From Patescibacteria group bacterium (GTDB lineage: Bacteria; Patescibacteriota; Patescibacteriia; Patescibacteriales; UBA12465): a DNA stretch of 51,257 bases. The DNA is taken from NCBI GenBank assembly GCA_038323715.1, contig JBBQHF010000006.1, positions 1 to 51,257 on the forward strand, given 5' to 3'. Positions 23,837 to 37,688 of the stretch are shown in pieces. Every line of letters begins with the position of its first letter. Within the stretch, counting starts at the first letter, position 1. The notes under the pieces are model-generated. The model made no database searches. It saw nothing but the letters and a program-made list of their open reading frames with translations, and was not told the origin of the DNA. Made by a program: the position numbers and the translations under genes.

Positions 23837-23844
23837 ATTTTAGT

Positions 23845-24560: not shown

Positions 24561-25967
24561 ATGAATAATGAACAAGTCTGGCAGGCCGTTTTAGGGGAAA
24601 TTGAAATAAGTCTTTCTAGAGCTAATTTTGTTACCTGGTTTAAGGATACTTTTATATCTTCTTTTGAAAATGGAATGATGATAGTTTGTGTTCCTAATGC
24701 TTTTGTGAAGAAGTGGTTGGAAGAAAAATATCATAAAAATATTTTAAGCGCTTTAAAAAATGTCACCAAACAAGACGTAACTGAAGTTATTTATAAAATA
24801 GAACTTAAAAAACACAACGCCTCTTTCCAAATTAACTCAAATGAAGATGTTAATAAAAATAATTCAGAGTCTATCATCCCTTTGGTTTCAGAAAAGCCAA
24901 CCTATCAAAACAATAATCAAACTTCATCAAATATTAATCGTTTCGGTTTAAACCCAAAATATCTTTTTGAAAATTTTGTTGTCGGTAAAGCAAATGAATT
25001 AGCACACGCTGCTTGTTTAGCGGTCACCAACAATCTAGGCAAAGCTTATAACCCATTATTTATCTATGGTGGTGTTGGGCTAGGGAAGACCCATCTTCTT
25101 CAGGCTATTGGAAATGAAGTAGCCAAAAGAACTGATAAAATTTTATATACCACTAGTGAAAAATTTACCAATAATTATATCCAAGCGGTCACCGGGGGAA
25201 AAGCTAAAGAATTTAAAAATTTATACCGCAATGTTGATTTACTTTTAATTGATGATATTCAGTTTATGGGTGGTAAAGATGGCACTCAAGAAGAATTTTT
25301 TCATACATTTAATGAACTACAACAAAACGACAAACAAATTATCATGACCTCTGATCGTCCCCCAAAGTCTATTCCGGCGATTGAAAAAAGGCTTATCTCT
25401 AGATTTGAATCTGGAATGGTGGCTGATGTTGGCAAGCCTGACATGGAAACAAAAGTAGTAATATTAGAAAAAAAAGCACTAGAAAAGGGTTTTACTTTAG
25501 ACAAGGAAATTTTAATGTATGTGGCTGAACATGTTCAAAATAATATTAGAGAGCTAGAGGGTGCCTTGAATAAAATAATTGCTTTTCACCAATTAAAAGG
25601 GATTGACCCCACAATAAAAAGTGTTAAGGAGGTGTTAGGTGATTTTATATCCAACATTCAATCAAGATCAATGTCCCCTAAAGATATTATAGAAGCTGTA
25701 TGTAAATTCTATGGCGTTACTATTAAAGATGTCATTGGTAATAGCCGAAAAAAAGAGGTTGTTTGGCCTAGACAAATTGCTATATATATAATAAGAGAGG
25801 AATTAAATACCTCTTACCCAACTATTGGTAATGAGCTTGGAGGAAGAGACCATACCACCGCGATGCACGCTTACAATAAAATTTTTCATGAAGTTAAAGA
25901 TAAGGGAAATGAAAAAATAAAACAAGAAATAGAATCCGTCAAACAACTTTTCCACCAAAATTATTAA
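24561..25967 (+). CDS. dnaA: chromosomal replication initiator DnaA
   Basis: AAA+ Walker A GGVGLGKTHLL, box VII, and the C-terminal DNA-binding helix (GGRDHTTAMHAYNKI). Confidence 0.97.
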   Translation: MNNEQVWQAVLGEIEISLSRANFVTWFKDTFISSFENGMMIVCVPNAFVKKWLEEKYHKNILSALKNVTKQDVTEVIYKIELKKHNASFQINSNEDVNKNNSESIIPLVSEKPTYQNNNQTSSNINRFGLNPKYLFENFVVGKANELAHAACLAVTNNLGKAYNPLFIYGGVGLGKTHLLQAIGNEVAKRTDKILYTTSEKFTNNYIQAVTGGKAKEFKNLYRNVDLLLIDDIQFMGGKDGTQEEFFHTFNELQQNDKQIIMTSDRPPKSIPAIEKRLISRFESGMVADVGKPDMETKVVILEKKALEKGFTLDKEILMYVAEHVQNNIRELEGALNKIIAFHQLKGIDPTIKSVKEVLGDFISNIQSRSMSPKDIIEAVCKFYGVTIKDVIGNSRKKEVVWPRQIAIYIIREELNTSYPTIGNELGGRDHTTAMHAYNKIFHEVKDKGNEKIKQEIESVKQLFHQNY

Positions 25968-26019
25968 TTTCTGTGCATTAGTCTGTTAACAATTAAACCT
26001 TACCCTCTTAATTACTTTT

Positions 26020-26232
26020 GATAAGTTGTGAATAAAAACACCACCTCACGACTTACCCACAAACAACGAAAAATAACACACCCCCACTACATAGACTTAT
26101 TAACAGTAAAAGCACAAAAATTACCAATCAAATCGCCAATATTTCAAATTATAGCAAGTTATCCACTCCCTTATTATTACTATTAATAATATATTATATA
26201 TATTAATAATATAATAAGAGACATATAAAAAT
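26020..26232. other. candidate oriC: DnaA-box-like sites plus an AT-rich unwinding tract in the dnaA-dnaN spacer
   Basis: Three 8/9 matches to TTATCCACA: TGTGAATAA (26027-26035, reverse), TTACCCACA (26053-26061) and TTATCCACT (26159-26167). A nearly pure A/T run follows at about 26170-26232. Confidence 0.6.
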
Positions 26233-27360
26233 ATGAAATTTATTTGTTTACAGGAAAATTTAAAAAGAGGATTAAGTATAGTGGGACACGCTACAACTAA
26301 AAATGTTAATCTCCCAATTCTAAATAACATACTAATAAAAGTTGAATCTGGTAATATAGAGTTTATTAGTACAAATCTTGAAATTGGGATTAAACACCAA
26401 TTAAGAGGTAAGGTAGAATCAGATGGAGAGTTTACAGTTGACGCTAAACTTATTTCAGAATATGTAAATCTCTTAAGTGGTGGCGAGAAAGTAAAAATTG
26501 AAGAGAAAGATAATGAATTAAGAGTTGAGTCTGGAAGTTATAAAACAAAAATCAAAGGCGAATCAGCTAAAGATTTTCCACTAATACCAACAATATCAGA
26601 AGAAAATCAGTATGTTTTCAAGATTGATGATTTAAAAAAAGCTTTAAATAGTGTAGTTTTTGCAGTTTCTAATAGTGAAAATAGAGTTGAATTAACGGGT
26701 GTTTTATTTAATTTTAGTGATAATACTTTAAGCCTAGCGGCGACAGATAGTTATCGGTTAGCCGAAAAAGAAATAAAAATAAAAAACAATCCCAACAACC
26801 AAGAACAAAAAGTGATTGTCCCTGCAAAAACAATTCAGGAATTATTAAGAATCCTTAATAATATAGATTTTGATGATGAAGCTGAAAATACTGATCAAAT
26901 AAAAATTAATATTTCTGATAATCAGATTTTATTTACATTTGATTCGGTTAGTCTAATATCCCGGGTTATTAACGGTCGTTACCCAGACTATAAACAAATA
27001 ATTCCTAATAAGAGTCAGACGGATGTTGTTGTTGGTAGACAGGAGTTAACTAGAGCTGTTAAAGCGGCTTCACTTTTTTCTAAATCTGGTATTAATGACA
27101 CCACTTTATTATTTTCTAAAAATAAAATTATAGTTTCCGCTTTTTCTGGGGCGAGCGGGGAGAGTCAGGCGGAAATAGGGGCAGAGGTAAGTGGCATTGA
27201 TAATGAAATTACGATTAATTATCGATATTTATTGGATGGACTTAATAATATTGGTAGTGATCAGGTAGTTTTGAAGTTGATAAACAATACAACTCCTTGT
27301 GTTTTAAAGTCACAAGAAGATGATGGTTATTTATATATCGTAATGCCTATTAGACAATAA
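26233..27360 (+). CDS. dnaN: DNA polymerase III beta sliding clamp
   Basis: 375 aa, three-domain clamp pattern (LAATDSYRLA, GRYPDY), immediately after dnaA. Confidence 0.95.
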   Translation: MKFICLQENLKRGLSIVGHATTKNVNLPILNNILIKVESGNIEFISTNLEIGIKHQLRGKVESDGEFTVDAKLISEYVNLLSGGEKVKIEEKDNELRVESGSYKTKIKGESAKDFPLIPTISEENQYVFKIDDLKKALNSVVFAVSNSENRVELTGVLFNFSDNTLSLAATDSYRLAEKEIKIKNNPNNQEQKVIVPAKTIQELLRILNNIDFDDEAENTDQIKINISDNQILFTFDSVSLISRVINGRYPDYKQIIPNKSQTDVVVGRQELTRAVKAASLFSKSGINDTTLLFSKNKIIVSAFSGASGESQAEIGAEVSGIDNEITINYRYLLDGLNNIGSDQVVLKLINNTTPCVLKSQEDDGYLYIVMPIRQ

Positions 27361-27380
27361 ATAATAATTTGATAAATAAA

Positions 27381-27411
27381 AAATAAGCCTTTTAAATGGG
27401 CTTATTTTTTT
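27381..27411. terminator. bidirectional terminator between dnaN and the PBP gene
   Basis: ATAAGCC-(9 nt)-GGCTTAT hairpin flanked by an A-run and a T-run. Confidence 0.65.
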
Positions 27412-27422
27412 ATTTCTACTAT

Positions 27423-30281
27423 TTATTTAGAAAAATTTACTTTTATATTTTCACTATTTTTTGTATTACCACTCCAGGTTTTAATTTCGCCATATAAAGT
27501 ATATTCCCCGGGGCTTATAGGCTCTTTCCAATAAACCTCAATATTACTACCAGTTATTGTATTAATATTGGCAATATTTTCTATCTTCTGTGTTTGTTCA
27601 TCTTTAACAAAAACGGTTAAGCGTGAAACATCCTGATAACCAGTCACATTAAAATTAACTCTCATGGGGAAATCAATCGAATTAATTGTGGTGCCATTTA
27701 AAGGTGAGGTGATTGTTATTGAATAATTATTTTTTGTTACCTGATTATTTGTTAATTTCAAATTAAAATTAACACTACTTTCTGTACAATTATCAACATC
27801 ATCGCAAGCCCTAACAGTTAAAGAATGATAACCATTTTGTAGGTCTGGTAATAATTCTTTTAGGTAACCACTGCTATCATATTTTGTTTTCCAAAGGCTA
27901 CCATTAATATAATAATCAAATCTAGCAACGCCTCTTGGGGCGGAGGCGGAGGCATTAATAGTTATTTCTTTTGTAGTAATCTCATCGTTATTGGTTGGTT
28001 GATTAATTAAAATAACTGGTTTATTTTCATCTTTATGTAGCTCATTATAATCTTTTAACAACAAAGAAGAGCTCGCGTGTTTCTCGGACCACCTAATCAC
28101 TGAACTCTCCCAGTTAGAAAATTGAGAGTCTTGAGTTGGGTCCTTAGGATTAGGGCCGAGGGGATTATTTTTATCTACATAAAATAAAATTGAATGCGCC
28201 TCTGGTACAGAAATTTCCGAAACTAATTCTAATGGAGTGAAGGCGGTTGCTGGTTGGCCAGTTGTGGTATCAATTTTTACTAATTGTGAAGGTATTTGTC
28301 CGTCTAAAATTGCCTTACCAGCCTTGTAATCATCTGGCCCTTTAAAATTCTCAATTGGAGTGTCACCAAGTACTTGTGACATATAAGCATTCCAAATTGG
28401 AGCCGCCACAACACTGCCGTCAGCCGCCCCCTTCATTTTATCGTTATTGCTGTTACCAACCCAAACACCAGTTACTAAAGATGGCGTGTAGCCAATAGTC
28501 CAGGCATCATGATAATCATTTGTTGTTCCTGTCTTAGCGGCGACTGGTCTATTACCTAAAGTTAAATTATTTTTTGCACCAAAAATAAATGAGCGCGCTG
28601 AATTATCTGATAAAATACTGTTAATCATTCTAGCAATTTGTGAATCTAAAACCTTTTTTTCTTCAGGTTTATACTCTTCAATAATTTTGCCATTTTTATC
28701 TTCTATTTTTAAGATGCTAACCACGGGGCTCATTTGTCCATCTCTAGCAAAAGCACTAAAAGCGTTGACATGTTCTATCATTTTTACCTCAGCGCCACCA
28801 AGAACTAAAGCTAAACCAAACCTATCCCTTTGGGTTAATGAGGTGTAACCCATTTTCTCAGCCAAATCAATCACATTATTTATTCCGGCTAAGTACAAAG
28901 CTTTGACAGCGGGAATATTTAAAGAACCAGCTAGTGCTTTTCTAACACTAACCGGGCCCCTCTCTCCAAGATCATAATTTCTAGGTTCGTATGGATTTGA
29001 AGGATCATTAGAGAAATTAGTATTTACATCGTATAAAATAGTGTCAGGTGAAAACCCCTTAGTAAATAAAGCAGCATAAACTATTGGTTTTATTGATGAA
29101 CCTGGTTGTCTAAGCCTGGTGGTAATATTTACTTGACCGTCTATTGTGTCATCAAAATAATCTCTTGAACCAACCATTGCTAATATTTGACCGGTTTTAG
29201 GATCAATAGAAACTAAAGCAGCATTATTAGCATTATATTTTTCTTGATATTTTTCTGTTTTTTCCTTTATAACCTCTTCGGCTATATTTTGTTTGTACAA
29301 ATCTAAGGTGGTATATATTTTTAATCCTTCTTGTTCTACCATTTTTTCTCCATATTTGTCCGCTAAAATATCCTTAATATACATTACAAAATGGGGAGCA
29401 GTTATGTTTGTCTCTGGCGCCATAAATTTTATTTCTTCATTTTTGGCAGCAATTTCTTGTTCTTCAGAGATATGTCCCTGCTCTTTCATTAATGTTAAAA
29501 CATAATCCTTTCTACCTAACAGTAAATCCTTGTTCGGTCCATACGGTGAGTACCTGCTAGGAGCTTGTGTGAGGGCCGCTAAGAGAGCGGCTTCTGCTAG
29601 GCTGATATCTTTAGCATGTTTGTTAAAATATTTCTGGCTAGCGGCTTCTATGCCGTAAGCGTTAGAGCCGTAAGGAATCTCATTTAGATACATTTGTAAA
29701 ATTTCATCTTTGGAAAATTTTTGTTCAAGCCTATAAGCTAAAACAATTTCTTTTATTTTTCTGGTCAACTTTTTTTCTGGAGTTAAGACGGCATTTTTAA
29801 TAAATTGTTGAGTTAAGGTAGAGCCTCCAGCAGTTTGTCCATATAAAACATTAGTGATTGCCGTTCTGATCATTGCTAAAATACTAAATCCACCATGGTT
29901 ATAAAAATTTTTATCCTCAATGGCGATTGGCGCCCATTTTACATAATCAGGTAAATCACTTAAAGAAATTAAAGTTCTTTTTTGATCACCATGAATTTCA
30001 TATAGAATATTTTCTCCAGTCCTATCATATATTTTTGTGCTTTGAGCAACCTCACGTTCTATCAGTTGATTTGGGTTTGGTATGTCTCGAGAAATCCAGG
30101 CAACATAGATAACTACTAGAAAAAAAAGAATAACGCCTAAACCAAGAAGTTTAACTAACAGTCTTTTTTTCCAGGACTTATTATTTTTATTATTTTTACG
30201 GCGTCCTTGGCCAGAGTTACTAACTACTACTTGATTTTTCCAAGTATCACTCCGATGAGCATTGAGTTGTGGAATTGGCAT
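27423..30281 (-). CDS. class A penicillin-binding protein (glycosyltransferase + transpeptidase) with a ~220-aa C-terminal beta-rich extension
   Basis: GT51 motifs (IAIEDKNFYNHGG, GGSTLTQQ, RKIKE), transpeptidase motifs (SSIKP, SLN, KTGTT), and an N-terminal TM anchor. Confidence 0.93.
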   Translation of the reverse strand: MPIPQLNAHRSDTWKNQVVVSNSGQGRRKNNKNNKSWKKRLLVKLLGLGVILFFLVVIYVAWISRDIPNPNQLIEREVAQSTKIYDRTGENILYEIHGDQKRTLISLSDLPDYVKWAPIAIEDKNFYNHGGFSILAMIRTAITNVLYGQTAGGSTLTQQFIKNAVLTPEKKLTRKIKEIVLAYRLEQKFSKDEILQMYLNEIPYGSNAYGIEAASQKYFNKHAKDISLAEAALLAALTQAPSRYSPYGPNKDLLLGRKDYVLTLMKEQGHISEEQEIAAKNEEIKFMAPETNITAPHFVMYIKDILADKYGEKMVEQEGLKIYTTLDLYKQNIAEEVIKEKTEKYQEKYNANNAALVSIDPKTGQILAMVGSRDYFDDTIDGQVNITTRLRQPGSSIKPIVYAALFTKGFSPDTILYDVNTNFSNDPSNPYEPRNYDLGERGPVSVRKALAGSLNIPAVKALYLAGINNVIDLAEKMGYTSLTQRDRFGLALVLGGAEVKMIEHVNAFSAFARDGQMSPVVSILKIEDKNGKIIEEYKPEEKKVLDSQIARMINSILSDNSARSFIFGAKNNLTLGNRPVAAKTGTTNDYHDAWTIGYTPSLVTGVWVGNSNNDKMKGAADGSVVAAPIWNAYMSQVLGDTPIENFKGPDDYKAGKAILDGQIPSQLVKIDTTTGQPATAFTPLELVSEISVPEAHSILFYVDKNNPLGPNPKDPTQDSQFSNWESSVIRWSEKHASSSLLLKDYNELHKDENKPVILINQPTNNDEITTKEITINASASAPRGVARFDYYINGSLWKTKYDSSGYLKELLPDLQNGYHSLTVRACDDVDNCTESSVNFNLKLTNNQVTKNNYSITITSPLNGTTINSIDFPMRVNFNVTGYQDVSRLTVFVKDEQTQKIENIANINTITGSNIEVYWKEPISPGEYTLYGEIKTWSGNTKNSENIKVNFSK

Positions 30282-30343
30282 ATATCTTTATTTTTTATTA
30301 TTATAGTATTATTATCCTTTTTATAGTATGATTTTGTCAAATT

Positions 30344-31153
30344 TTGTTTTATAATATATTTATTATGATAAATATTAATAGTTTAGAAAATAAAAAAATT
30401 AAAGAAATAGTTAGACTTAGAAAAGCTAATATTAGAAAAGAGTCTGGCTTGTTTTTAATTGATGGCAAACGAGAAATAAGCGCCGCCTTAGAAGCGGGCA
30501 TTAAGATTGAAGAAATATTTTATTGTCCCGACTTTAGTCCAGATGATAGTGGACTTTTGGAAGGTATTTCTTATGAAAGCCAAGTTGTTGTTTCTAAATC
30601 TGTTTTTCAGAAAATGGCATATAAAGAAAATCCAGACGGATTTCTAGCAACCGCAAAAAGTATCAATACCAGTTTAGATAAAATAAAATTAAGTAAAAAT
30701 CCTTTAATTGTTATTTTAGAATCCGTTGAAAAACCCGGTAATTTGGGAGCGATTATTAGAACTGCTTATGCGGCCGGCGTTGATGCTATAATAATTAATG
30801 ATAATCAAACTGATATATTTAATCCTAACGTTATCAGGGCTAGTGAGGGGCTTATTTTTAATACTCAGATAGCTTCGGCTAGTATTGAGGCCACAATTAA
30901 TTGGTTAAAAAGTAATCATATTAAAAGTTTTGCAGCGGCCACATCCGCTAGTTCTGATTATTTAAAATCAGATATGTCGGGCCCAACAGCTATTGTTTTG
31001 GGGTCAGAGGCTAATGGATTGAGCGATAAATGGCTTAAGGTGGTAAATAAGAAAATACTTATTTCTATGAAAAAAGGAATAGATTCCCTTAATGTTTCAG
31101 TTTCAGCGGCGATAATTATTTTTGAAGCAGTTAGACAAAGGAATATTAGTTAA
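30344..31153 (+). CDS. TrmH/SpoU-family RNA 2'-O-methyltransferase (RlmB-like); the true start may be a few codons downstream
   Basis: SPOUT motifs (LESVEKPGNLGAIIRTA, VLGSEANGLS, PMKKGIDSLNVSVSAAI-like). Confidence 0.88.
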   Translation: MFYNIFIMININSLENKKIKEIVRLRKANIRKESGLFLIDGKREISAALEAGIKIEEIFYCPDFSPDDSGLLEGISYESQVVVSKSVFQKMAYKENPDGFLATAKSINTSLDKIKLSKNPLIVILESVEKPGNLGAIIRTAYAAGVDAIIINDNQTDIFNPNVIRASEGLIFNTQIASASIEATINWLKSNHIKSFAAATSASSDYLKSDMSGPTAIVLGSEANGLSDKWLKVVNKKILISMKKGIDSLNVSVSAAIIIFEAVRQRNIS

Positions 31154-31164: not shown

Positions 31165-31193
31165 TTGACAATGACAGCTAATTCTATTATTAT
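31165..31193 (+). promoter_or_regulatory. sigma70-like promoter for tRNA-Arg/tRNA-His
   Basis: TTGACA (31165-31170), 17-nt spacer, TATTAT (31188-31193), about 20 nt upstream of tRNA-Arg. Confidence 0.5.
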
Positions 31194-31212: not shown

Positions 31213-31284
31213 GCGCCCGTAGTTCAATGGATAGAACACCAGCCTTCTAAGCTGGTTATGAGGGTTCGATTCCCCCCGGGCGTA
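31213..31284 (+). tRNA. tRNA-Arg (anticodon UCU)
   Basis: Acceptor GCGCCCG/CGGGCGT (G1.U72 wobble), D stem GTTC/GAAC, anticodon stem CCAGC/GCTGG, loop CT-TCT-AA. The T arm GAGGG-TTCGATT-CCCCC has one A.C mismatch. Confidence 0.85.
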
Positions 31285-31305
31285 CGTTTTGAGAAAAACA
31301 AGCAT

Positions 31306-31377
31306 GGTGCCTATGGTGTAGTGGTAACACGCCAGGTTGTGGTCCTGTTATTGTGGGTTCGATTCCCACTAGGCACC
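31306..31377 (+). tRNA. tRNA-His (anticodon GUG) with genomically encoded G-1
   Basis: G-1 pairs with discriminator C73. Acceptor GTGCCTA/TAGGCAC, anticodon loop TT-GTG-GT, T arm GTGGG-TTCGATT-CCCAC. Confidence 0.9.
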
Positions 31378-31385
31378 CTATAAAT

Positions 31386-31415
31386 AAAAAGAGCAGATAT
31401 TATCTGCTCTTTTTG
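31386..31415 (+). terminator. intrinsic terminator after tRNA-His (module a)
   Basis: GAGCAGATA-T-TATCTGCTC perfect hairpin followed by TTTTT. Confidence 0.75.
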
Positions 31416-31428
31416 TTTAGGTAGTAGA

Positions 31429-31570
31429 GGAATCGAACAGGTTGGAAGCGAAATATGAGTTGAGGCGGAAGCCGAAACGAGTAATTGAGTGTCGGACAAA
31501 TATCCGGGGGATATTTGGACGCCAACCCAGGACAAGTGAGCTTTTTGCATTATGGCAAAAAGCGAGCGCG
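31429..31570 (+). repeat. 142-nt structured repeat, copy 1 (unclassified; candidate ncRNA or miniature mobile element)
   Basis: Identical to 32752-32893 at 141/142 positions by my alignment. About 49% G+C by my count (70/142). Contains two perfect 9-bp hairpins and a GNRA-capped hairpin. Confidence 0.85.
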
Positions 31571-31572
31571 CT

Positions 31573-31625
31573 TTCCCGATAGGCACCCCATTTGGAAAAG
31601 ACGAGCTTAAAGGCTCATTTTTTTA
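31573..31625 (+). other. tRNA-His 3'-end-like remnant plus weak hairpin and T-run (module b)
   Basis: TTCCCGATAGGCACCC compared with the genuine tRNA end TTCCCACTAGGCACCC (14/16). GAGC-TTAAAG-GCTC and a T-run follow. Confidence 0.6.
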
Positions 31626-31684
31626 TTTACTTTTTAACTAAACCAAGGTAAACTTATTGTATAATTATCATATTATTTTTAGTT

Positions 31685-32293
31685 ATGAAAAAATTAATAT
31701 TTATTGCAATTATTCCATTATTTTTAATTATCTCTGGTATTGTTTTTGCTGCCGAAGGTATAAAATATGATTTTGATGATGTTGAGGTTAAATATGCCGC
31801 CGAATTTACAGCCAAACCTATAAGTGTTGATTCTGATAATTGGATAGCCCAGATTGCAGGAGGCATTGATAAGCCTATAACTATTCTTTATGGAATTGTT
31901 AATCTTAAAAAAAATGGGGAAACTCAAATGTCTGAAGAATTTATTAAAGTTAGCGGTCAGGGTGGTTCAGAAAGATTTCTGATAAATAGCGCCACTTACG
32001 ATTATTACGAAGGAACGAGTAATTATTCGGAGATAAAATCATTTTTTTGGTCCGCTAAAAAATTAGTAGATAACAGTGTTATTAAAGATTTTACGTTACC
32101 AATTAGATCGGTTAGTTTATATAGGAAATTTGATGTATCCCAACAAATAAGTAATATAGTATTATCATTTTCTAATAATGGACAGGAAGCTACTAGTGAA
32201 TTTTCGTCTTCAATCCCCTCTAAAAATTTATATGAGGCAGATATTACCACATTAAATCAATCTGGTGCCACAACCGCAACAATCTCTAATTAA
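31685..32293 (+). CDS. hypothetical secreted protein (202 aa) with an N-terminal signal peptide
   Basis: MKKLIFIAIIPLFLIISGIVFA|AEG is signal-peptide-like. No family recognised. Lies between the two repeat copies. Confidence 0.6.
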   Translation: MKKLIFIAIIPLFLIISGIVFAAEGIKYDFDDVEVKYAAEFTAKPISVDSDNWIAQIAGGIDKPITILYGIVNLKKNGETQMSEEFIKVSGQGGSERFLINSATYDYYEGTSNYSEIKSFFWSAKKLVDNSVIKDFTLPIRSVSLYRKFDVSQQISNIVLSFSNNGQEATSEFSSSIPSKNLYEADITTLNQSGATTATISN

Positions 32294-32297
32294 ATTT

Positions 32298-32546
32298 ATG
32301 AATAAAATAATTATTATCATTATCGGGGTGGTGCTTATTGGAGGAATAGTGTTCGCTTTCAAAAATCTTTATAGCCCATTAGTAGTGGCCCCAGAATTAA
32401 CATCCACGGTCAACACTGAAAAAACAACGCCTTCTCAGACTCAGGTTAGCTCAACTTCAACCACAAGTATGGTTAAGCCAGTAGACATTTCAATAAATAT
32501 TCTTGATCGAATCGAAATAGCTATTCGAGCAAAGCTTCAAAAATAG
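32298..32546 (+). CDS. hypothetical small membrane-anchored Ser/Thr-rich protein (82 aa from MNKIIII...)
   Basis: The ORF-track start at 32265 overlaps the upstream gene by 29 nt. The internal ATG at 32298 begins directly with the TM helix, so I prefer it. Confidence 0.5.
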   Translation: MNKIIIIIIGVVLIGGIVFAFKNLYSPLVVAPELTSTVNTEKTTPSQTQVSSTSTTSMVKPVDISINILDRIEIAIRAKLQK

Positions 32547-32682
32547 AAACACCACGGCATTCCTTGTTGTTACTTATTTTGATTACAAAATATTTATAAT
32601 TTATACTTCAAAATCAAAACTCTTCTGAAAAATATCTAGCTCTATAGCTATGTTTTCCCAATCAAAAGTTCTGAACGCATCA

Positions 32683-32731
32683 CATAGTGGACCCTATAAT
32701 AAAAAAGAATAGATTTTATCTATTCTTTTTT
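32683..32731 (+). other. tRNA-His 3'-end-like remnant plus terminator hairpin (module c)
   Basis: CATAGTGGACCCTATAATAAAAAA-GAATAGAT-TTT-ATCTATTC-TTTTTT parallels CACTAGGCACCCTATAAATAAAAA-GAGCAGATA-T-TATCTGCTC-TTTTT of module a. Confidence 0.6.
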
Positions 32732-32751
32732 ATTATGGCTGGAACAGCCAG

Positions 32752-32893
32752 GGAATCGAACAGGTTGGAAGCGAAATATGAGTTGAGGCGGAAGCCGAAA
32801 CGAGTAATTGAGTGTCGGACAAATATCCGGGGGATATTTGGACGCCAACCCAGGACAAGTGAGCTTTTTGCATTATGGCAAAAAGTGAGCGCG
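32752..32893 (+). repeat. 142-nt structured repeat, copy 2
   Basis: Same orientation as copy 1. The single difference is T32886 against C31563. Confidence 0.85.
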
Positions 32894-32902
32894 ATGATTT
32901 CT

Positions 32903-32947
32903 GAGTAGCCACCCATAAAAAAGAGCACATAATGTGTACTCTTTTTT
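32903..32947. other. tRNA-His 3'-end-like remnant plus bidirectional terminator hairpin (module d)
   Basis: GAGTAGCCACCCATAAAAAA-GAGCACAT..ATGTGTACTC-TTTTTTGTTT parallels module a, including the TTTTTGTTT tail. Confidence 0.55.
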
Positions 32948-32972
32948 GTTTGCTTTGTGTATTTTTGAGACT

Positions 32973-33185
32973 TTATTTTTTTTCTTTATATTTTACCTCC
33001 CAAGTTAGGCCTGTTTTTATACCAGATATTGCTGGTAATAGATGATTAAGGACCTGCTCAGCTGTCATCCGAAATTTATTACCTTTGGCAGAAATTTTAA
33101 CCCAACCATCCTGGTCGCGAAAATATTTTTCAGTGAAATTTTTAGTGCCTATTGATATTATGTAGCTGTCATTTGTTAATTTCAT
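32973..33185 (-). CDS. hypothetical small protein (70 aa)
   Basis: ORF with TGATATAAT ending about 8 nt upstream of its ATG, so possibly leaderless. No family recognised. Confidence 0.45.
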   Translation of the reverse strand: MKLTNDSYIISIGTKNFTEKYFRDQDGWVKISAKGNKFRMTAEQVLNHLLPAISGIKTGLTWEVKYKEKK

Positions 33186-33290
33186 ATTTTAAATTATATC
33201 ACGGAGGGTTTTATATCGTCGAGGGCAGTGAGTTTATGGTCTCGGGATGATGTGATACATAAGATCTTATAATTAGATTTTAATTATTTT

Positions 33291-33872
33291 TTAGATTTTT
33301 AAGCGCTTAGACCATATTACTAAAGCGCTTAACATTTCACTAATTTTGTTTTTTGTATAATCGTCAATTAAATTGCCCTCGATATCAAATTTTTCCTGGA
33401 TAGCCCCAACCATTACCTCGGGACGATTTAAGGGGTGCATGTCTAAAGCAACTAAAATTTGACGTAAATGATATTGCATACGAGCGGTAGCGATATTACC
33501 CGTTGAACCACCCATAATCGCCGCTAGTTTGCCCTTAAAACTATTATCACCATATGGCCTTGACCCCCAATCAATGGCATTTTTCAAAACGCCAGATATA
33601 GAATAATTATATTCTGGGCCTACAAACAAAACAGCATCCGCCGCTTTAATTTTGTTTTTAAATTCTTGAACCGCGGCCGGTAAATTAATTTCAAAATCTT
33701 GATTAAAAAGCGGCAGCTGCCCAATTTCTGAAATTTCCAATTCAATTTCGGCTGGCGCTAACGCAACCGCGGCTTGCAATAAACCGGTATTAAATGAGTC
33801 TTTACGTAAACTACCAGAGATACCAACAACTTTAATTTTATTATTTTCTATCATATTATTCTGGTTAAGCAT
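33291..33872 (-). CDS. NAD(P)H-dependent FMN reductase family oxidoreductase
   Basis: KVVGISGSLRKDSFNTGLL...FVGPEYNYSISGVLKNAIDW is the flavodoxin-like FMN_red pattern. Confidence 0.88.
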   Translation of the reverse strand: MLNQNNMIENNKIKVVGISGSLRKDSFNTGLLQAAVALAPAEIELEISEIGQLPLFNQDFEINLPAAVQEFKNKIKAADAVLFVGPEYNYSISGVLKNAIDWGSRPYGDNSFKGKLAAIMGGSTGNIATARMQYHLRQILVALDMHPLNRPEVMVGAIQEKFDIEGNLIDDYTKNKISEMLSALVIWSKRLKI

Positions 33873-34032
33873 TATTAATACAAAGATTATACTCTTTTTT
33901 ACAGTAATTTACGAGTCCTTAGACTCGTTTTTCTTTGGACCGAGACCTTGATTACATCTTCAAAAAATTATATAATAAAATACCCATGATATTAGAATAA
34001 TAATAATTTGAATTTATTCTAATCATTTATAT

Positions 34033-34239
34033 TTGTTGTTTATGAATAAAAAATCTATCAAAATATTTGGCCTAGCCTTGATCATTATAGTCACACTAGT
34101 AATGTTAATTGTTTTTTATGTAGATTTTTTCATAAGAATTAAGATATTATCGTATCGGCTAGTTATAATATTTCTCACTCTGATATTATTATCAAATTTA
34201 AGTGCTAAAATTTTAGTAAATTATTTTAAACATAACTAA
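34033..34239 (+). CDS. hypothetical small two-TM membrane protein (68 aa), first gene of the GT2 cluster
   Basis: Two hydrophobic helices. Ends 6 nt before the GT2 start. Confidence 0.5.
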   Translation: MLFMNKKSIKIFGLALIIIVTLVMLIVFYVDFFIRIKILSYRLVIIFLTLILLSNLSAKILVNYFKHN

Positions 34240-34245
34240 AAACAT

Positions 34246-35652
34246 ATGTTTAAAAAATTTTTAATTTATTTTTCTTTATATGTAGTAACGCTTTGGATTA
34301 TTATATCTGTTTTTTTGTTGACGCCATCTGATAGCGAAAACTTTCCCGTTATTAGATTAATTATTATTTCTTTTGCCTCCGTTCTTTTGATAAAATATTT
34401 TGTCTACATGATAATCAGCCCGTGGCATGACGTTTTTGTGGCCTGGTCAGAATATAAAAATAGAAAAATATATAATTATAAAACATATAGACCCAGAGTA
34501 ACTGTTTTAGTCCCGGCCTGGAATGAAGAAAGTGGGATTATTACAACGCTTCAGTCGCTGATAAATAGTTCTTATAAAAAATTAGAAATAATAGTGATTG
34601 ATAATGCTTCAACGGATGATACTGCGGTTAATGTTGTTAGTTTTATTAAAAAATATAAAAAATTAGAAAAGTTTTATGGAGAAAACATTAAAATTATTTA
34701 TACCAGAGAGGACCAAAAAGGCAAAGGATATGCTCTTAATAAAGGCATCGCGATGGCTACTGGAGAAATTATAGTATCTATTGATGCTGATTGTTTTGTT
34801 CCTAAAGAAACTATACAAAATTTTGTTAATTATTTTAAAGACGACAAGGTAATGGCGGCCGTGGGCAATGTTAAAATAGGCAACACTAAATCTATTATTG
34901 AAGTTATTCAATATTTAGAGTTTCTATTTTCATTTTATTTTAAAAAATGTGATTCCTTGTTGGGTTCTATTTATATAATTGGTGGCGCTGCTGGAGCGTT
35001 TAGAAGAAAAATTTTTGATGACATTGGTGGTTATAGTGTTACTAATATAACAGAAGACATTAATTTATCTTTTAGAATACAACACGAGGGCCTGAAGATA
35101 ATTTATGCGGAGCAAGCGATTGTTTATACAGAAGGAGCCACTGATTTTACGGGCTTGATTCAACAAAGATTGAGGTGGAAAAAGGGTAGATTAGAAACAT
35201 TTTTAGAATATCGCAAGATGTTTTTTAGTAAAGATAAAAATCATAAAAAAGTTTTATCTTGGTTTGTTTTGCCGCTTGCGGTATTTGGGGATATGCAATT
35301 ATTTTTAGAATTATTTTTTATATTATTTGTCTATATTTATTCTTATCTGACAAAAGATTATTCCTCATTTATTTCTGGAATTATTGTGGTTAGTTCCATG
35401 TTCGCGGTGCAGATATTATTTGATGTGAGTGAAAAAAGAAAAAAAAGGTTATTTTTATTAGCGCCTATTGGCTGGCTATTGCTTTATGCTAGTACTTTTG
35501 TAGAATTTAGAGCTTTAATAAAATCATTGTGGGGCTATATTAAGAAGGAGGAAGTAGTTTGGCAGCAGTGGAATCGTAAAGGAGTTTTCTCTCAGTTCAC
35601 TCAAAATAAAACAATCCCGGTCGCCACGGTTACTAAAAAAAATAGAGATTAA
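34246..35652 (+). CDS. processive family-2 glycosyltransferase (PgaC/IcaA/NodC/HAS-like polysaccharide synthase)
   Basis: VTVLVPAWNEE...IIVIDNASTDDT, IVSIDADC (DxD), GGAGAFRR, and QQRLRWKKG (QxxRW), with TM helices on both sides of the catalytic domain. Confidence 0.85.
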   Translation: MFKKFLIYFSLYVVTLWIIISVFLLTPSDSENFPVIRLIIISFASVLLIKYFVYMIISPWHDVFVAWSEYKNRKIYNYKTYRPRVTVLVPAWNEESGIITTLQSLINSSYKKLEIIVIDNASTDDTAVNVVSFIKKYKKLEKFYGENIKIIYTREDQKGKGYALNKGIAMATGEIIVSIDADCFVPKETIQNFVNYFKDDKVMAAVGNVKIGNTKSIIEVIQYLEFLFSFYFKKCDSLLGSIYIIGGAAGAFRRKIFDDIGGYSVTNITEDINLSFRIQHEGLKIIYAEQAIVYTEGATDFTGLIQQRLRWKKGRLETFLEYRKMFFSKDKNHKKVLSWFVLPLAVFGDMQLFLELFFILFVYIYSYLTKDYSSFISGIIVVSSMFAVQILFDVSEKRKKRLFLLAPIGWLLLYASTFVEFRALIKSLWGYIKKEEVVWQQWNRKGVFSQFTQNKTIPVATVTKKNRD

Positions 35653-35657
35653 CACAT

Positions 35658-36929
35658 ATGTTTAAAGTACGGCTAATATTAAAGAATCGTTTAATGCTAG
35701 TTAGTGTTTTGGCTCTCGTCTTATTTGCTAGCTACTTTTTGTTTAGTCATAATAAAAAAATAAAAAATGCAGTTAATAATAATTACTCAGGGGTTGGATC
35801 CGCGCCAATTCAAAACGATAGTCAGCTGGTGGATATTAATATCGCGGTGCCTGACAACACTCAGGCCACAAATAGTGCCAATATCATAGTGCAAAATATT
35901 ATACAACCGGAAACAACCACCTTGAGAATAGGGAAAATTCCAGTTGTTATTTCGGAATTAAAAAATACAACCACTACTAACAAAATAACCATTGTTCAAT
36001 TACCAAGCGAGGTTATGGCTTGGGTTTATCCTGGTAATCCGACCTGCGCAGCAAAGAGGGAATACTCAGACGGCAGAAGGATTACTATTCTTAAACCAGA
36101 ATACTTTAATATTGATGAAAACGGCCAATTAATATTGCTGACGGAAAAAAACAATGGCTGTAATGGTTATTCATTGTCTAATGTTGCGGATTTAAAAAAA
36201 TATTCAACGCAACAGTATGTCACTATCTCGTCTTCTTATGCGGTTAGCATGAATTTATTTTTAGATAATAGTTTGGATGATTCAAATAATATTGACACCC
36301 TAGTTTCTTTTGTAGTTGATAATAATTTAACTGGTTTAGAAATAGATTTTGAAGATTTTGGTGGATGGGATAAGGAAGTTTATGATAAATACAAAAAATT
36401 CTTATTAAAATTAGGAACCGCCTTACATGAAAAAAAGAAAAAACTTATGATAGATGGCCCGGCCACATCTAACGTGGTTGAAGATGCTTGGTATGTTTGG
36501 CGTTATTCAGATTTTAATAATTTACCGGTAGATAAAATAGTTGTTATGGCCTATGACTATCAGTATGATCAAGGTGCTGGGCAGCCCGTATCACCGATAG
36601 CTTGGATTAAAAATACTATTAATTGGACACTTAAAAAAATTGATGATAAGTCAAAGCTTTCTTTAGGAATACCATCGTATGGTTATAAAGGAAGTGTTGG
36701 TGCTCATAAATTTTCTCTTTTAACTTATGAACAGATTAAGAAAGAGCCGGGTTTTGATACCGCGACACGAGACCCAGAATCGTTTGAAATGACTTGGAGT
36801 AATGGTAATAATATTTATTTCTATCAAGATGCTGAAAGTATGTCTAAAAAATTACAAACCATTCAAGCTGCCGGCATAAAATCTGTTTCAGTTTGGCACC
36901 TGGGCGGCAATTTGTGGTTTAATAATTAA
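35658..36929 (+). CDS. membrane-anchored GH18-like (chitinase-fold) protein
   Basis: N-terminal TM segment. LTGLEIDFEDFGGW resembles the GH18 DxxDxDxE strand, and MAYDY is also GH18-like. Confidence 0.7.
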   Translation: MFKVRLILKNRLMLVSVLALVLFASYFLFSHNKKIKNAVNNNYSGVGSAPIQNDSQLVDINIAVPDNTQATNSANIIVQNIIQPETTTLRIGKIPVVISELKNTTTTNKITIVQLPSEVMAWVYPGNPTCAAKREYSDGRRITILKPEYFNIDENGQLILLTEKNNGCNGYSLSNVADLKKYSTQQYVTISSSYAVSMNLFLDNSLDDSNNIDTLVSFVVDNNLTGLEIDFEDFGGWDKEVYDKYKKFLLKLGTALHEKKKKLMIDGPATSNVVEDAWYVWRYSDFNNLPVDKIVVMAYDYQYDQGAGQPVSPIAWIKNTINWTLKKIDDKSKLSLGIPSYGYKGSVGAHKFSLLTYEQIKKEPGFDTATRDPESFEMTWSNGNNIYFYQDAESMSKKLQTIQAAGIKSVSVWHLGGNLWFNN

Positions 36930-36981
36930 TAAACTTTTACTATTAATGCTATAATGAAGTTAGAACTTTAAAAAAATAGTA

Positions 36982-37680
36982 ATGAAACAGATTATTGGAA
37001 AAAGTGTTGGCAGGGTTTGGTTATTTATTTTAGCCATACTAGCAATTTACATTTTTAAAATTCGTAACCAAGTTAAGGTTATTGGACGAAAAAATCTCCC
37101 TAAAAATAATGGAATACTATATGTCTCAAATCACCACACGTTAATTGATTCTTTATTAATTGGGATTAGTGTGTCGTCAATTTTTGATGTATTTTTCCAT
37201 TATGATCGCATTCCTTGGAATGCTCCCGATTACGACAATTTTTTTAAGCATCCGATTGGACGGCAATTAATTCATTTATCAAAATGTGTGCCCGTTCATC
37301 GTCATACTGCTAAATTGGAAGTAATAAACAGGGATATCAACAATTTCTGCGAAACCCTAAAATATAGTAATTTAGTTTTATTTTTTGAGGGGACTAGAAC
37401 AAGAAATGGGCAAATAAGCGACTGTAAGTATGGGGTGGCAAAAACAATATCTCGAGTGAATCCTAATTATGTTGTCCCGATTTATTTACATGGAGTGCAG
37501 CCCATTATGCCAATAAAATCTGGTTTTAATTTTACTAAAATCTACGGTGGCCATAAAGGGCTATTGTTTATTGGCAAACCTATCATTTTTAGTGATTTAA
37601 GCGATGAAGAGATGATTAAAAATGAAGTAAAGAGTGCTGTTTTAGAATTACAAAAGCAGCAAGAAAAAATGAAAAAATAA
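36982..37680 (+). CDS. plsC: lysophospholipid (1-acyl-sn-glycerol-3-phosphate) acyltransferase
   Basis: HX4D motif (SNHHTLIDS), FFEGTRTRNG, and an N-terminal TM segment. Confidence 0.85.
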   Translation: MKQIIGKSVGRVWLFILAILAIYIFKIRNQVKVIGRKNLPKNNGILYVSNHHTLIDSLLIGISVSSIFDVFFHYDRIPWNAPDYDNFFKHPIGRQLIHLSKCVPVHRHTAKLEVINRDINNFCETLKYSNLVLFFEGTRTRNGQISDCKYGVAKTISRVNPNYVVPIYLHGVQPIMPIKSGFNFTKIYGGHKGLLFIGKPIIFSDLSDEEMIKNEVKSAVLELQKQQEKMKK

Positions 37681-37688
37681 TTTATTGT

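Follow-up and report, generated by a model that had tools for sequence, protein, structure and literature searches.

The window, the 51,257-nt stretch of Patescibacteria DNA analysed here, carries on its + strand a tRNA-His(GTG) gene at 31307..31378, with G-1 at 31306, which was identified by ARAGORN and matched the Rfam tRNA model with 63 bits. This gene is the target of the element described below. Its positions 58-74 (31362-31378, ATTCCCACTAGGCACCC) form the left copy of a 17-nt repeat, and its positions 53-63 (GTTCGATTCCC) are the complement of the 5' end of an RNA encoded downstream. Directly 3' of the tRNA, 31379..31427 holds a cassette-borne palindromic terminator, term1 (arms within 31386-31414; inverted repeat I6, direct-repeat family D2), and a 13-nt linker; term1 takes the place of the native tRNA-His terminator, and relatives with an empty site have a different, native terminator at this position. 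The first copy of the RNA core follows at 31428..31570 (162.6 bits with model R1, with a consensus structure and covariation). It comprises a 5' guide-like segment (31428-31438, AGGAATCGAAC), helix P1 (31440-31445 with 31522-31527), the P2 rod with tandem G.A steps and a GGAA loop (31448-31490), P3 (31493-31521, including a hairpin at 31497-31517) and P4 (31540-31563). The right copy of the 17-nt repeat (TTTCCCGATAGGCACCC, 31572..31588) is identical to tRNA-His 58-74 at 14 of 17 positions and is contiguous with a native CCA (31588-31590) and a native trailer; from 31589 on, the window is orthologous to the trailer and terminator that stand directly after tRNA-His in the related loci L040, L034 and L038. 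The displaced native terminator, recognised by a terminator scan and by orthology to the empty-site terminators, lies at 31591..31625 (hairpin 31603-31616 and a T run) and is the likely 3' end of the RNA from copy 1.

A separate cassette with two ORFs (31685-32293 and 32265-32546, without a Pfam match) occupies 31626..32694 on the same strand and ends in a decayed tRNA-His 3' remnant that was read from the sequence (32668-32694); it is not part of the RNA element. A second palindromic terminator, 80% identical to term1, lies beyond it with a linker containing a small GGCTG-GAA-CAGCC hairpin (32698..32750; D2, I2 and folding). The second copy of the core is found at 32751..32893 (161 bits with model R1), and its 5' segment is 32751-32761 (GGGAATCGAAC). 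This copy has a decayed tRNA-His-like tail (ATTTCTGAGTAGCCACCC, 32897..32914), recognised by sequence, by folding and by the test for helix P0 described below, the start of which forms a helix with the 5' segment that includes G.U pairs (GGGAAUCG and GAUUUCU). The third D2 member, again a palindromic terminator, follows at 32915..32950; every feature listed here is encoded on the + strand.

The first-pass annotation had reported two near-identical 142-nt copies in the same orientation, and both a repeat search and a reading of the sequence recovered them as a direct repeat (31429-31570 and 32752-32893, 99% identical, 1323 nt apart) with a single difference, C31563 versus T32886. As that annotation had also noted, the difference falls on the closing pair of P4, where G31540-C31563 becomes G.U in copy 2. 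While the repeat itself stood, its extent did not, the conserved unit being slightly larger: model R1 matches 31428-31570 and 32751-32893, the two cores differing at the first base as well as at T32886, and a tRNA-derived tail continues beyond the core to 31588 in copy 1 and 32914 in copy 2. A 52-nt piece of the element matched only the two copies within the window, with 0 matches expected by chance. The G+C content was 0.49 against 0.2-0.4 in the surrounding sequence and approximately 33% in the genome, in agreement with the earlier description of a GC-rich element in an AT-rich genome. The only sequence found from other strains of the window organism is a 2.8-kb contig that breaks off within copy 2.

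An exact 25-mer from the element identified 32 further loci (25 metagenome and 7 genome), and all those with a taxon label were from Patescibacteria. Model R1 collected 27 non-redundant copies scoring 69-177 bits. The four helices that had been drawn by hand in the window (GGTTGG/CCAACC, the GGAA-capped hairpin with G.A/A.G steps, 31497-31517 and 31540-31563) were recovered by RNAalifold from 21 homologues and by pair counting in 27, and all four covary across the 27 copies. In this set 96.1% of paired cells form standard pairs, compared with 81% in shuffled and about 35% in slid controls, double changes occur in 30 of 37 pairs, and the covariation score of 0.457 (0.169 in shuffles) was reached by none of 500 shuffles. 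The core thus described is a three-way junction (P1-P2-P3) with the additional hairpin P4, rich in tandem G.A steps, and contains about 50 invariant positions that lie largely in unpaired junctions. Single-sequence folding was only modestly better than for shuffles (z -2.3 to -3.0 on the + strand, -1.9 to -2.3 on the - strand), and the case for structure therefore rests on covariation and not on folding energy.

We give almost no credence to the proposal that the element encodes a small protein, or that it is a duplication of chance or segmental origin without a function of its own. ORFs do cross both copies, and several frames are free of stops in the majority of homologues, 21 of 27 for + frame 2 and 17-23 of 27 for the - frames. 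The earlier statement that copy 1 has no start codon proved incorrect, since a TTG-started ORF crosses it, yet this lends no support to coding. The core lengths of 138, 141 and 143-146 nt keep no frame, column variability by position modulo 3 (0.40/0.34/0.25) has no clear codon pattern, and there is no conserved start codon. Furthermore, paired columns vary more than unpaired ones (0.66 versus 0.47) and the changes in stems are compensatory. A merely local duplication is contradicted by conservation of the family over at least 27 loci at 11 different tRNAs.

The suggestion that the product is an RNA of the + strand is favoured by several features: the GNRA loop, the tandem G.A steps, co-orientation with the tRNA (19 of 19 copies with an identifiable upstream tRNA), and an excess of G.U over A.C cells (26 versus 13), a preference of just 2:1 in an alignment that had been fitted to the + strand model. 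A terminator-like hairpin lies 22-32 nt 3' of the core in 13 of the 27 copies. The stretch from the upstream terminator to the core contains no match to the sigma-70 promoter consensus, nor does a TANNNT recur at a constant distance; a strong promoter for tRNA-Arg/His is present at 31165-31193.

The element had been proposed as an unclassified structured RNA, and with covarying helices, a favoured + strand and no Rfam, phage or plasmid match this description holds. The Rfam search that had been advised gave no match over the core in the window, at gathering thresholds or at E<=10, and loci L003, L008, L009 and L026 gave none at gathering thresholds or at E<=1; the Rfam 15 models tested included hammerhead, SRP, tmRNA, RNase P, 6S, group I/II, YrlA and HEARO/omega RNAs. 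Matches at the core edges were at chance level (sraA, 26.2 bits, over the upstream terminator and first ~25 nt; ctRNA_pGA1, 16.2 bits). A hammerhead core is absent, as had been stated: only UGA-GGC..GCC-GAAAC is present, the CUGA uridine turn is missing and the Rfam hammerhead models were unmatched. A phage or plasmid origin was rejected after two members gave no blastn match in phage or plasmid collections and the 25-mer was not found in IMG/VR. A tRNA-like or tmRNA-like gene on the minus strand was likewise rejected, GTTCGATTCC having no T-stem or acceptor partner and ARAGORN and Rfam returning nothing. Our full-text literature search found no description of such an element.

It had been recommended that other copies be checked for neighbouring tRNA genes, and every homologue was found to lie just 3' of a tRNA end or a tRNA remnant. 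Where the upstream tRNA was identified (19 loci), the core begins 47-59 nt beyond it on the same strand, and eleven different tRNAs are used: His, Trp, Glu (CTC in L023), Ser (two), Gln, Gly (two), Asp, Val and Ala. The order of parts is the tRNA, a long palindromic terminator, a linker of 7-20 nt, the ~143-nt core and a 17-nt direct copy of tRNA positions 58-74. This copy matches the tRNA at 17/17 positions in 10 of the 19 loci and at 14-16/17 in 4, and is decayed in 5. With the insert bracketed by a direct repeat of tRNA 58-74, the tRNA gene stays intact and its original terminator is shifted downstream. In L022, where one contig carries two copies, terminator and core are common to both, and each repeat fits the T-stem of its own tRNA (CCCCG versus CCCAC); the repeat thus appears to be derived from the target. 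ORF cassettes at the same tRNAs have other repeat boundaries, no antisense 11-mer and no such structure, and by this comparison the repeat boundaries and the 11-mer are specific to the RNA cassettes.

The tRNA-His site is empty in four syntenic relatives (L034, L036/L037, L038 and L040), which share the order SpoU, tRNA-Arg, tRNA-His. Their native terminator is orthologous to window 31591-31625, the terminator after the repeat, and the window thus carries an insertion of ~212 bp. Conversely, the relative L008 has two copies at tRNA-Ala(CGC), and the tRNA-Ala of the window (4953-5026) has none. Modules are mosaic between copies, and gene conversion could therefore mimic some of the signs of mobility. 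Taken with the linkage to tRNA genes, these observations make it very probable that the element is a mobile, tRNA-linked cassette for a structured RNA. The best reading is that each copy is the sole gene of a ~210-bp, protein-less mobile cassette that inserts into tRNA 3' ends in Patescibacteria. Its RNA represents a new family, and the cassette itself a new variant among mobile elements targeted to tRNA genes. The earlier structured-RNA reading was supported by the tests on every point; what it missed was that the RNA is the cargo of a ~210-bp insertion flanked by the 17-nt repeat of the tRNA 3' end, that its 5' end is antisense to the T-arm, and that the unit is mobile.

Candidate partner proteins were sought near the loci. 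An all-against-all BLAST of 237 neighbour ORFs revealed no shared protein family, and the 25 commonest of the 112 Pfam families matched by 107 neighbour ORFs included no recombinase, reverse transcriptase or nuclease, the neighbours being typical island cargo (GNAT, AbiEii-type AAA, HTH/M78, methylase). None of the 46 window ORFs of at least 90 aa that were scanned is an integrase, and the only trace of a recombinase in the window is a Zn-ribbon fragment of a serine recombinase. As no recombinase, reverse transcriptase or nuclease gene is consistently nearby, any enzyme proposed to move the cassette is hypothetical.

The 5' end of the RNA supplies a second link to the tRNA. RNA nucleotides 1-11 and tRNA 53-63 form 199 of 209 possible Watson-Crick pairs across the 19 loci, a total reached by none of 5000 permutations, and the midpoint of the complementary stretch falls on the repeat's left edge (57|58). 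The 5' segment changes with the adjacent tRNA and follows the T-loop variants AAT, ATT and AGT. L026 has the T-loop TTCAATT, and its RNA carries AATTGAAC to match; this compensatory change affects position 57, outside the repeat. Pairing with tRNA 53-57 rests on the invariant CGAAC and on this one compensatory case, and L023 and L025 have mismatches within it. The 3' tail is identical to the top strand at 58-74 and hence complementary to the bottom strand, which may simply reflect the insertion repeat. In addition, the first ~6 nt of the core pair with the start of the downstream repeat in a helix, P0, which closes the RNA; it has 6-8 bp in most copies, and again none of 5000 permutations reached the observed total. 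The 11-mer remains complementary at 10-11 of 11 positions even where the repeat has decayed to 5-7/17 (L009, L018, L020, L001), and in the Trp group, L001 and L016 a decayed repeat stands beside a near-consensus core and an intact 11-mer. Since repeat-decayed copies keep both core and 11-mer, an ongoing cellular function accounts for them no less well than a guide that is purely selfish.

Insertion guided by the RNA itself is a tentative proposal which we regard as possible but doubtful. As an overall explanation, a mobile cassette whose + strand RNA product recognises the tRNA T-arm, with guided insertion as a proposed function, comes out best, at a little under an even chance of being right. 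In this scheme the core would be transcribed on the + strand, co-directionally with the tRNA, ending at the displaced terminator; an RNA of ~165-200 nt is expected, starting near GGGAAUCGAAC and ending at the downstream terminator. The 5' 11-mer would act as a guide for the T-arm sequence, in the top strand of the tRNA gene or in its transcript, and the tRNA-identical 3' tail could pair with the opposite DNA strand. These pairings may position a trans-encoded enzyme, or possibly the RNA itself, for staggered breaks at 57|58 and 74|75, whose repair would yield the 17-nt duplication. The version in which an element free of protein genes has its RNA programme its own insertion, through a trans-acting recombinase or transposase or through its own catalytic core, and so leaves the 17-nt duplication, strikes us as rather unlikely.

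Alternatively, an ordinary tRNA-targeting integrase could move the cassette in trans, the RNA being cargo with a cellular role aimed at the tRNA. Ordinary tyrosine integrases likewise leave a 17-nt-type repeat from the T-loop to the tRNA 3' end, so that the repeat seen here is the classical footprint of a T-loop-targeting integrase; integration sublocations in tRNA genes, including those of such integrases, were reportedly surveyed by Williams in Nucleic Acids Research in 2002. The 11-mer would then pair with the T-arm of its cognate tRNA while that tRNA is nascent or unfolded, either in cis by read-through or in trans, and control its folding, processing, modification or decay, or else serve as a decoy for a nuclease directed at the T-arm or acceptor. 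The persistence of the 11-mer after decay of the repeat argues that complementarity is maintained after insertion, and the lack of a detected promoter in front of the core fits read-through from the tRNA-Arg/His promoter. In folds of tRNA-His through the 5' segment, the centroid structure pairs the T-arm with the 5' segment around the terminator and the minimum-energy structure keeps the cloverleaf, the two competing at similar energy. However, a strong bidirectional terminator stands between tRNA and core, mature T-arms are folded and modified and hence poor antisense targets, and no integrase was found near the ~30 loci among the 25 commonest of 112 Pfam families. The L022 repeats fit their own T-stems, whereas a carried attP copy would need later correction, and the presence/absence pattern and tandem arrays look selfish and not housekeeping. 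On balance we consider this explanation unlikely.

The cassette shares much with tyrosine-integrase islands and prophages at the T-loop sublocation and with their integrase-less derivatives (CIMEs, MITE-like remnants). These too insert in the 3' part of tRNA genes, leave a direct repeat from the T-loop to the 3' end that restores the tRNA, as is found here, and accrete in tandem at one tRNA, and some are non-autonomous. The present unit differs in being only ~210 bp, with no integrase at ~30 loci (same Pfam scope), in carrying a highly conserved structured RNA with a 5' end antisense to tRNA 53-63, and in the use of one core family at 11 tRNAs with the repeat matched to each.

The position of the 11-mer also invites the idea that the core might be a small ribozyme which splices or ligates itself and sits in the T-loop much like an intron, with the 11-mer as an internal guide that aligns GUUCG57 with A58-C63 so that tRNA 1-57 is joined to the downstream 58-74. 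In group I introns (IGS) and group II introns (delta-EBS1), a contiguous guide pairs across the junction with the last nucleotides before it and the first after it. The geometry here is exactly that of a group I IGS (P10 then P1) or of group II delta-EBS1, in the same 5'-to-3' order, the 6 nt that follow the junction pairing with the 5' half of the 11-mer and the 5 nt that precede it with the 3' half. The repeat edge gives an independent definition of the junction 57|58, invariant junction nucleotides are about as numerous as in a ribozyme, and the downstream copy in the window carries the native CCA. Even so, nothing would call for splicing when the core is already preceded by an intact tRNA and a terminator, and the downstream 'exon' is decayed in 5 of 19 loci with the core intact. 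The 5' junction lacks a U.G, a terminal G is not conserved, no Rfam group I, group II or small-ribozyme model matched (E<=10 in the window, E<=1 at four other loci), and known self-splicing cores are well above 143 nt. Such a ribozyme is highly improbable.

We hold it very unlikely, too, that the conserved structure functions at the level of single-stranded DNA, serving as a folded attachment site comparable to integron attC or to the attP hairpin of CTX phage, in which pairing of the 11-mer with the repeat rebuilds a T-arm-like duplex for a host recombinase. Over 58-63 the 11-mer and the repeat do reconstitute the two tRNA-gene strands and leave single-stranded extensions, and sheared G.A pairs, GNNA-type loops and G.T wobbles are stable in DNA as well. 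Integrons hold arrays of small, promoter-less cassettes, some non-coding, with a structured or palindromic end element; the cassettes here are also small, form arrays with ORF cassettes, have no detected promoter between upstream terminator and core, and end in a structured or palindromic element. In contrast to folded att sites, which conserve shape and not sequence, this core has its ~50 invariant positions largely in unpaired junctions. No RYYYAAC/GTTRRRY (R/L) core sites are present, GTTGGAA and CGCCAAC failing the consensus; there is no attI, no IntI gene among the window ORFs, and no IntI/Xer-type gene among the window ORFs or in the 25 commonest of 112 Pfam families of the neighbours. 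The one-strand G.U excess and the terminator beyond the tail are consistent with a transcript, ORF cassettes use the same sites without any such structure, and tRNA genes anchor the arrays.

If the core reading is true, this is a widespread, previously unannotated family of structured RNAs in Patescibacteria, with at least two subtypes, and to our knowledge its cassettes are the smallest that target tRNA genes. They would explain recurrent assembly breaks and unexplained GC-rich islands beside CPR tRNA genes, and would provide a marker of genome plasticity in organisms regarded as having few mobile elements. The 11-nt T-arm antisense would point either to a new RNA-guided integration mechanism, of interest for genome engineering, or to a new, adjacent antisense or mimic control of tRNA. 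Should the RNA programme insertion, it would represent a new class of RNA-guided, T-arm-targeted integration in CPR, re-targetable via ~11 nt. The tandem G.A architecture, which is unusually dense, is also an attractive structural target.

Among RNA-guided systems, the IS110-family bridge RNAs are structured ncRNAs encoded by the element beside a DEDD/serine recombinase gene, with two internal loops for target and donor, a 2-nt core overlap and no long duplication (PMC11208160, PMC11208158). Like them, the present RNA is a structured ncRNA (~150-180 nt) encoded by its element. Bridge RNAs covary with the target through two segments that pair with opposite target strands, either side of and overlapping the exchange point; the two ends of the present RNA may correspond to these, its 5' 11-mer being complementary to the top strand, but its tail may match the bottom strand simply as the insertion repeat. 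Its putative pairing segments are, however, the RNA termini, with a 6-nt overlap and a 17-nt repeat; no donor-binding loop was identified in it, and neither PF01548 (DEDD) nor PF02371 (Transposase_20) occurs in the window ORFs or in the 25 commonest of 112 neighbour Pfam families. Unlike TnpB/IscB omega RNAs, it has no adjacent TnpB/IscB-type ORF (neighbour BLAST; 25 commonest of 112 Pfam families) and matches neither the IS605-orfB nor the HEARO model of Rfam.

Casposons (Cas1-solo transposons), for example that of Aciduliprofundum boonei, integrate at tRNA 3' ends with a 15 bp target-site duplication, and their target choice needs the TPsiC-loop-encoding sequence just upstream of the duplicated segment (PMC5137440). 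The long duplication at the tRNA 3' end, 17 nt here with its left edge in the T-loop, may be comparable. Casposons are large, encode Cas1 and PolB, have terminal inverted repeats, and are targeted by protein to a duplication that overlaps the tRNA by 5 bp only (PMC5137440). By comparison, no Cas1 or PolB was found here (46 window ORFs; 25 commonest of 112 neighbour Pfam families), the duplication lies wholly inside the tRNA (58-74), T-loop recognition is apparently by RNA, and the unit ends are not inverted repeats. A minus-strand primer-binding site of the retroviral type was also considered and rejected: the complementarity ends at C74 and does not include CCA, and no reverse transcriptase lies close by. 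A further candidate was an extended inverted match between the linker and the whole tRNA 3' end, which would form a 17-bp acceptor/T-stem minihelix. Inspection by eye made it plausible at the His, Trp and Gly loci, but cognate pairs scored the same as permuted ones (p=0.29) and it was rejected.

The repeat picked out by the first-pass annotation is real. Its 142-nt direct copies at 31429-31570 and 32752-32893, lying 1323 nt apart, were 99% identical, with C31563 versus T32886 as the sole difference, just as originally read, and a 52-nt piece of the element matched at these two places only within the window (0 matches expected by chance). A G+C content of 0.49, against 0.2-0.4 in the flanking DNA, bore out the description of a GC-rich element, and Rfam 15 yielded no match to it at gathering thresholds or at E<=10, in line with the earlier failure to recognise a known family. 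Just upstream lie tRNA-Arg(TCT) (31213-31285) and tRNA-His(GTG) (31307-31378), which are driven by a strong promoter at 31165-31193. Single-sequence folding of the element was modestly better than that of shuffled sequence on both strands (z -1.9 to -3.0), and since z was only modest on either strand, thermodynamics alone proves little. The initial interpretation was supported and considerably extended, the main new finding being the genomic context of the element.

The 25-mer GAGTTGAGGCGGAAGCCGAAACGAG was present in 25 JGI metagenome contigs and in 7 contigs of GTDB species representatives, four of them labelled Patescibacteria and the rest carrying generic or doubtful labels; it was absent from IMG/VR, and two family members had no blastn match in phage and plasmid collections. 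A search with R1, a covariance model of the ~143-nt core, returned 27 non-redundant copies scoring 69-177 bits. RNAalifold on 21 sequences recovered all four helices that had been drawn by hand, as a three-way junction in which P1 (GGUUGG/CCAACC) encloses P2 and P3, with hairpin P4 next. In P2, 2x2 G.A/A.G steps break up a long rod that ends in a GGAA loop; P3 and P4 are variable in sequence, with tandem G.A at the bases of both. In the R1-derived alignment standard pairs occupied 96.1% of paired cells, against 81.0% after shuffling and 33-39% in a control with partners slid by 1-3 columns; 30 of the 37 pairs had changed on both sides, and the covariation score was 0.457 versus 0.169 for shuffled alignments, none of 500 shuffles scoring as high. 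Column entropy was higher at paired (0.66) than at unpaired positions (0.47), and about 50 positions of the core were invariant, many of them unpaired. The core is a structured RNA family, new in that it is found neither in Rfam 15 nor in the literature searched, and an intron-like ribozyme is a less likely reading of it. A peptide gene is unlikely: core lengths of 138-146 nt keep no frame, variability by codon position has no clear period, and the compensatory substitutions in the stems also oppose coding.

A diverged subtype of the core, 'b', retained the scaffold at three loci in other genomes or metagenomes (L008:2153-2290, L003:405-548 and L012:1865-1980), its two full-length copies scoring 69-96 bits and the L012 copy, cut by the contig end, 24.9. 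In this subtype P2 and the P3 loop are altered, the 5' CGAAC, the GCGGA(A)GC hairpin and the tail are unchanged, and the copy usually stands in tandem with one of subtype 'a' at the same tRNA. The earlier preference for a + strand RNA held for the family: on this reading G.U cells outnumbered A.C cells (26 versus 13), the tetraloop is a GNRA loop, the core was co-oriented with the upstream tRNA in 19/19 copies having an identifiable one, and a hairpin and T run began 22-32 nt past the core in 13 of the 27 copies. The transcript is thus likely to be read from the + strand.

The proximity to tRNA genes, raised in the first reading as a point to check in other copies, proved general, every copy following a tRNA gene or the decayed 3' remnant of one, and the position of the core at tRNA 3' ends is obligate. 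The layout was the same throughout: tRNA or remnant, a long perfect palindrome directly after it that looks like a bidirectional terminator, a linker of 7-20 nt, the core, a direct copy of the same tRNA's 3' end beginning 2-3 nt after the core and, usually, a second terminator. Across 19 loci with an identified tRNA the core started 47-59 nt past it, the hosts being tRNA-His, Trp, Glu(TTC), Ser(TGA), Ser(GCT), Gln, Gly(GCC), Gly(TCC), Asp, Val and Ala, with Glu(CTC) in addition at locus L023. The repeat corresponds to tRNA positions 58-74, i.e. the last three T-loop bases, the 3' strands of T-stem and acceptor, the discriminator and C74, and was identical at 17/17 positions in 10 of the 19 loci, at 14-16/17 in four and decayed in five. 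At 31386-31414, 32698-32733 and 32915-32950 in the window, and at most other loci, the palindrome arms of 17-21 bp include an A tract and a T tract, making them terminator-like on both strands; no consensus promoter was found between terminator and core. At L001, L025 and L027 the element ends a conserved cluster of tmRNA, tRNA-Leu(TAA) and tRNA-Gly(GCC) (no tmRNA was called in L001), and these loci differ from one another in terminator and repeat state. The terminator after the L027 repeat resembles the one that immediately follows the L001 tRNA, the pattern expected had an older arrangement been shifted downstream by a new unit.

The core opens with 11 nt that are antisense to, and covary with, the adjacent tRNA. 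They were Watson-Crick complementary to tRNA positions 53-63 at 199/209 positions, a value reached in 0/5000 permutations of the tRNAs among loci; the 11-mer is GGGAUUCGAAC for TTCGAAT tRNAs, GGGAAUCGAAC for TTCGATT tRNAs and GGGACUCGAAC for TTCGAGT tRNAs. At L026, where the host tRNA-Gly has TTCAATT, it is GGGAAUUGAAC, a telling case, as the 17-nt repeat does not extend to position 57. The midpoint of the complementary stretch falls at 57|58, the left edge of the repeat. A further helix, P0 (6-8 bp in most copies), joins the first ~6 nt of the core to the start of the downstream repeat, the total pairing again being reached in 0/5000 permutations. In the centroid fold of tRNA-His through the 5' segment, T-arm and 11-mer are paired around the terminator hairpin, whereas the minimum-energy fold retains the cloverleaf, so a read-through transcript would have two competing conformations. 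The tRNA-Gly(GCC) adjoining the element at L025 (368-440, - strand) has an unusual T-loop, TCCGACT; the 11-mer and repeat there fit TTCAATT/ATT instead, and no other locus has 3 mismatches between guide and tRNA.

Empty sites are present in relatives. Syntenic loci in four relatives were reached through homologues of the SpoU/TrmH methylase gene that immediately precedes the window tRNAs (protein identity 60-68%, the nearest only 68%). All have the order dnaA, dnaN, PBP1A, SpoU, tRNA-Arg, tRNA-His, and the element was not found at these four loci at E<=10. Immediately after tRNA-His these relatives read ...CACC-C(CA)-AGTGGAAAAGACGAG... and then have a hairpin and a T run. The window ortholog of this trailer lies at 31588-31625, past the right-hand repeat of copy 1, which implies that ~212 bp were inserted in the window; the insertion comprises terminator, linker, core and one repeat copy, placed between tRNA-His position 74 and the native CCA/terminator. 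Locus L008, a relative sharing the order 16S, tRNA-Pro, tRNA-Ala, LytR, has two copies, of subtypes a and b, after tRNA-Ala(CGC), and the identical window tRNA-Ala (4953-5026) has none. The trailer of the latter (5027-5075) reads ATAATCCCAAG...CGGGC-ACCCAGGTA-GCCCG-AAC; it has no core, and its ATAATCCC and CGAAC recall element junction motifs, which could be chance or a footprint.

At L022 two copies on one contig are alike in terminator and core, including a lineage-specific P3 sequence, and each repeat fits the T-stem of its own tRNA-Ser (CCCCG versus CCCAC), which speaks for a repeat copied from the target and not brought in by the element. Mosaic copies also occurred: L014 and L015, on one contig, have P1-P3 in common and differ in 11-mer, P4 and repeat, and L009 and L020 have common flanks and differ in terminator and P3. 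The unit, we infer, is a mobile but non-autonomous cassette; a folded single-stranded-DNA att site is a less likely explanation of it. L033 (contig SRR19962012_17072), the only other assembly with the window's FMN-reductase gene, corresponds to window 32856-35618 and ends inside RNA copy 2, indicating that the repeat breaks short-read assemblies.

We further infer a role for the two ends of the RNA in recognition of the tRNA gene or its transcript. The reading that we tentatively favour is RNA-directed insertion: pairing would involve the top strand and the 5' 11-mer across 57|58, and the bottom strand and the 3' tail over 58-74, and the 17-nt duplication would arise from staggered breaks at 57|58 and 74|75. 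This is plausible in the light of casposons, which make a ~15-bp duplication at the tRNA 3' end with the TPsiC-loop region as targeting determinant (PMC5137440), and of IS110 bridge RNAs, element-encoded RNAs that pair with staggered stretches of both target strands (PMC11208160). In contrast to these systems, the element carries neither Cas1 nor an IS110 recombinase, and by the test of these signature genes it belongs to neither group. In the main rival reading, which we rate somewhat less probable, the cassette owes its movement to an ordinary integrase and what the RNA acts on is the tRNA itself; the 11-mer being intact where the repeat has decayed speaks for it. The RNA family sits in a new variant of tRNA-targeted mobile element, and that RNA-guided insertion here represents a truly new mechanism is rather doubtful.

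All-against-all BLAST of 237 neighbour ORFs revealed no recurrent protein family next to the element, and no recombinase-type family was among the 25 commonest of the 112 Pfam families matched by 107 neighbour ORFs. The 46 window ORFs of at least 90 aa that were scanned are housekeeping genes or island cargo, the sole recombinase-like item being a 275-aa ORF 17 kb off (50391-51218, - strand). At the window edge, this ORF matched Zn_ribbon_recom (recombinase zinc beta-ribbon) and no other Pfam family, and probably represents a large serine recombinase fragment.

ORF cassettes at the same tRNAs, such as window 31626-32694, a 49-aa cassette at L034, an M23-peptidase cassette at L002 and a GNAT cassette at L012, lack the 11-mer and the 58-74 boundaries, so both features are specific to the RNA cassette. 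The window example has two ORFs and no Pfam match, its products being a membrane protein of ~90 aa and a 202-aa protein whose N-terminus resembles a signal peptide, and ends in a decayed tRNA-His remnant (32668-32694). This remnant reaches back to GTTC.GA, a repeat boundary unlike that of the RNA cassettes, and points to a second way of integrating at the same tRNA, of a conventional kind. In L034 (8017-8460), a relative without the RNA element, the cassette follows tRNA-His and lies between copies of a repeat, at least 22 nt long, that comprises the acceptor strand and left terminator arm (TTAGG/CCACCCAAAGTAGAAAAAACGAG); the TAGCCACCC variant is common to L034 and the tail of window copy 2.

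Window 22807-31153 is the replication-origin region of the Patescibacteria chromosome (yidC, rnpA, dnaA, dnaN, PBP1A on the - strand, SpoU/TrmH), an order shared with four relatives, Candidatus Falkowbacteria CP066698 among them. From SpoU and the tRNAs to the glycan phosphorylase gene (37797-39470) the distance is 318 nt in the Falkowbacteria genome versus 6.6 kb in the window, where a variable island after tRNA-His (31379-37790) holds the two RNA cassettes, the two-ORF cassette, an FMN reductase (- strand), GT2, GH18 and an acyltransferase.
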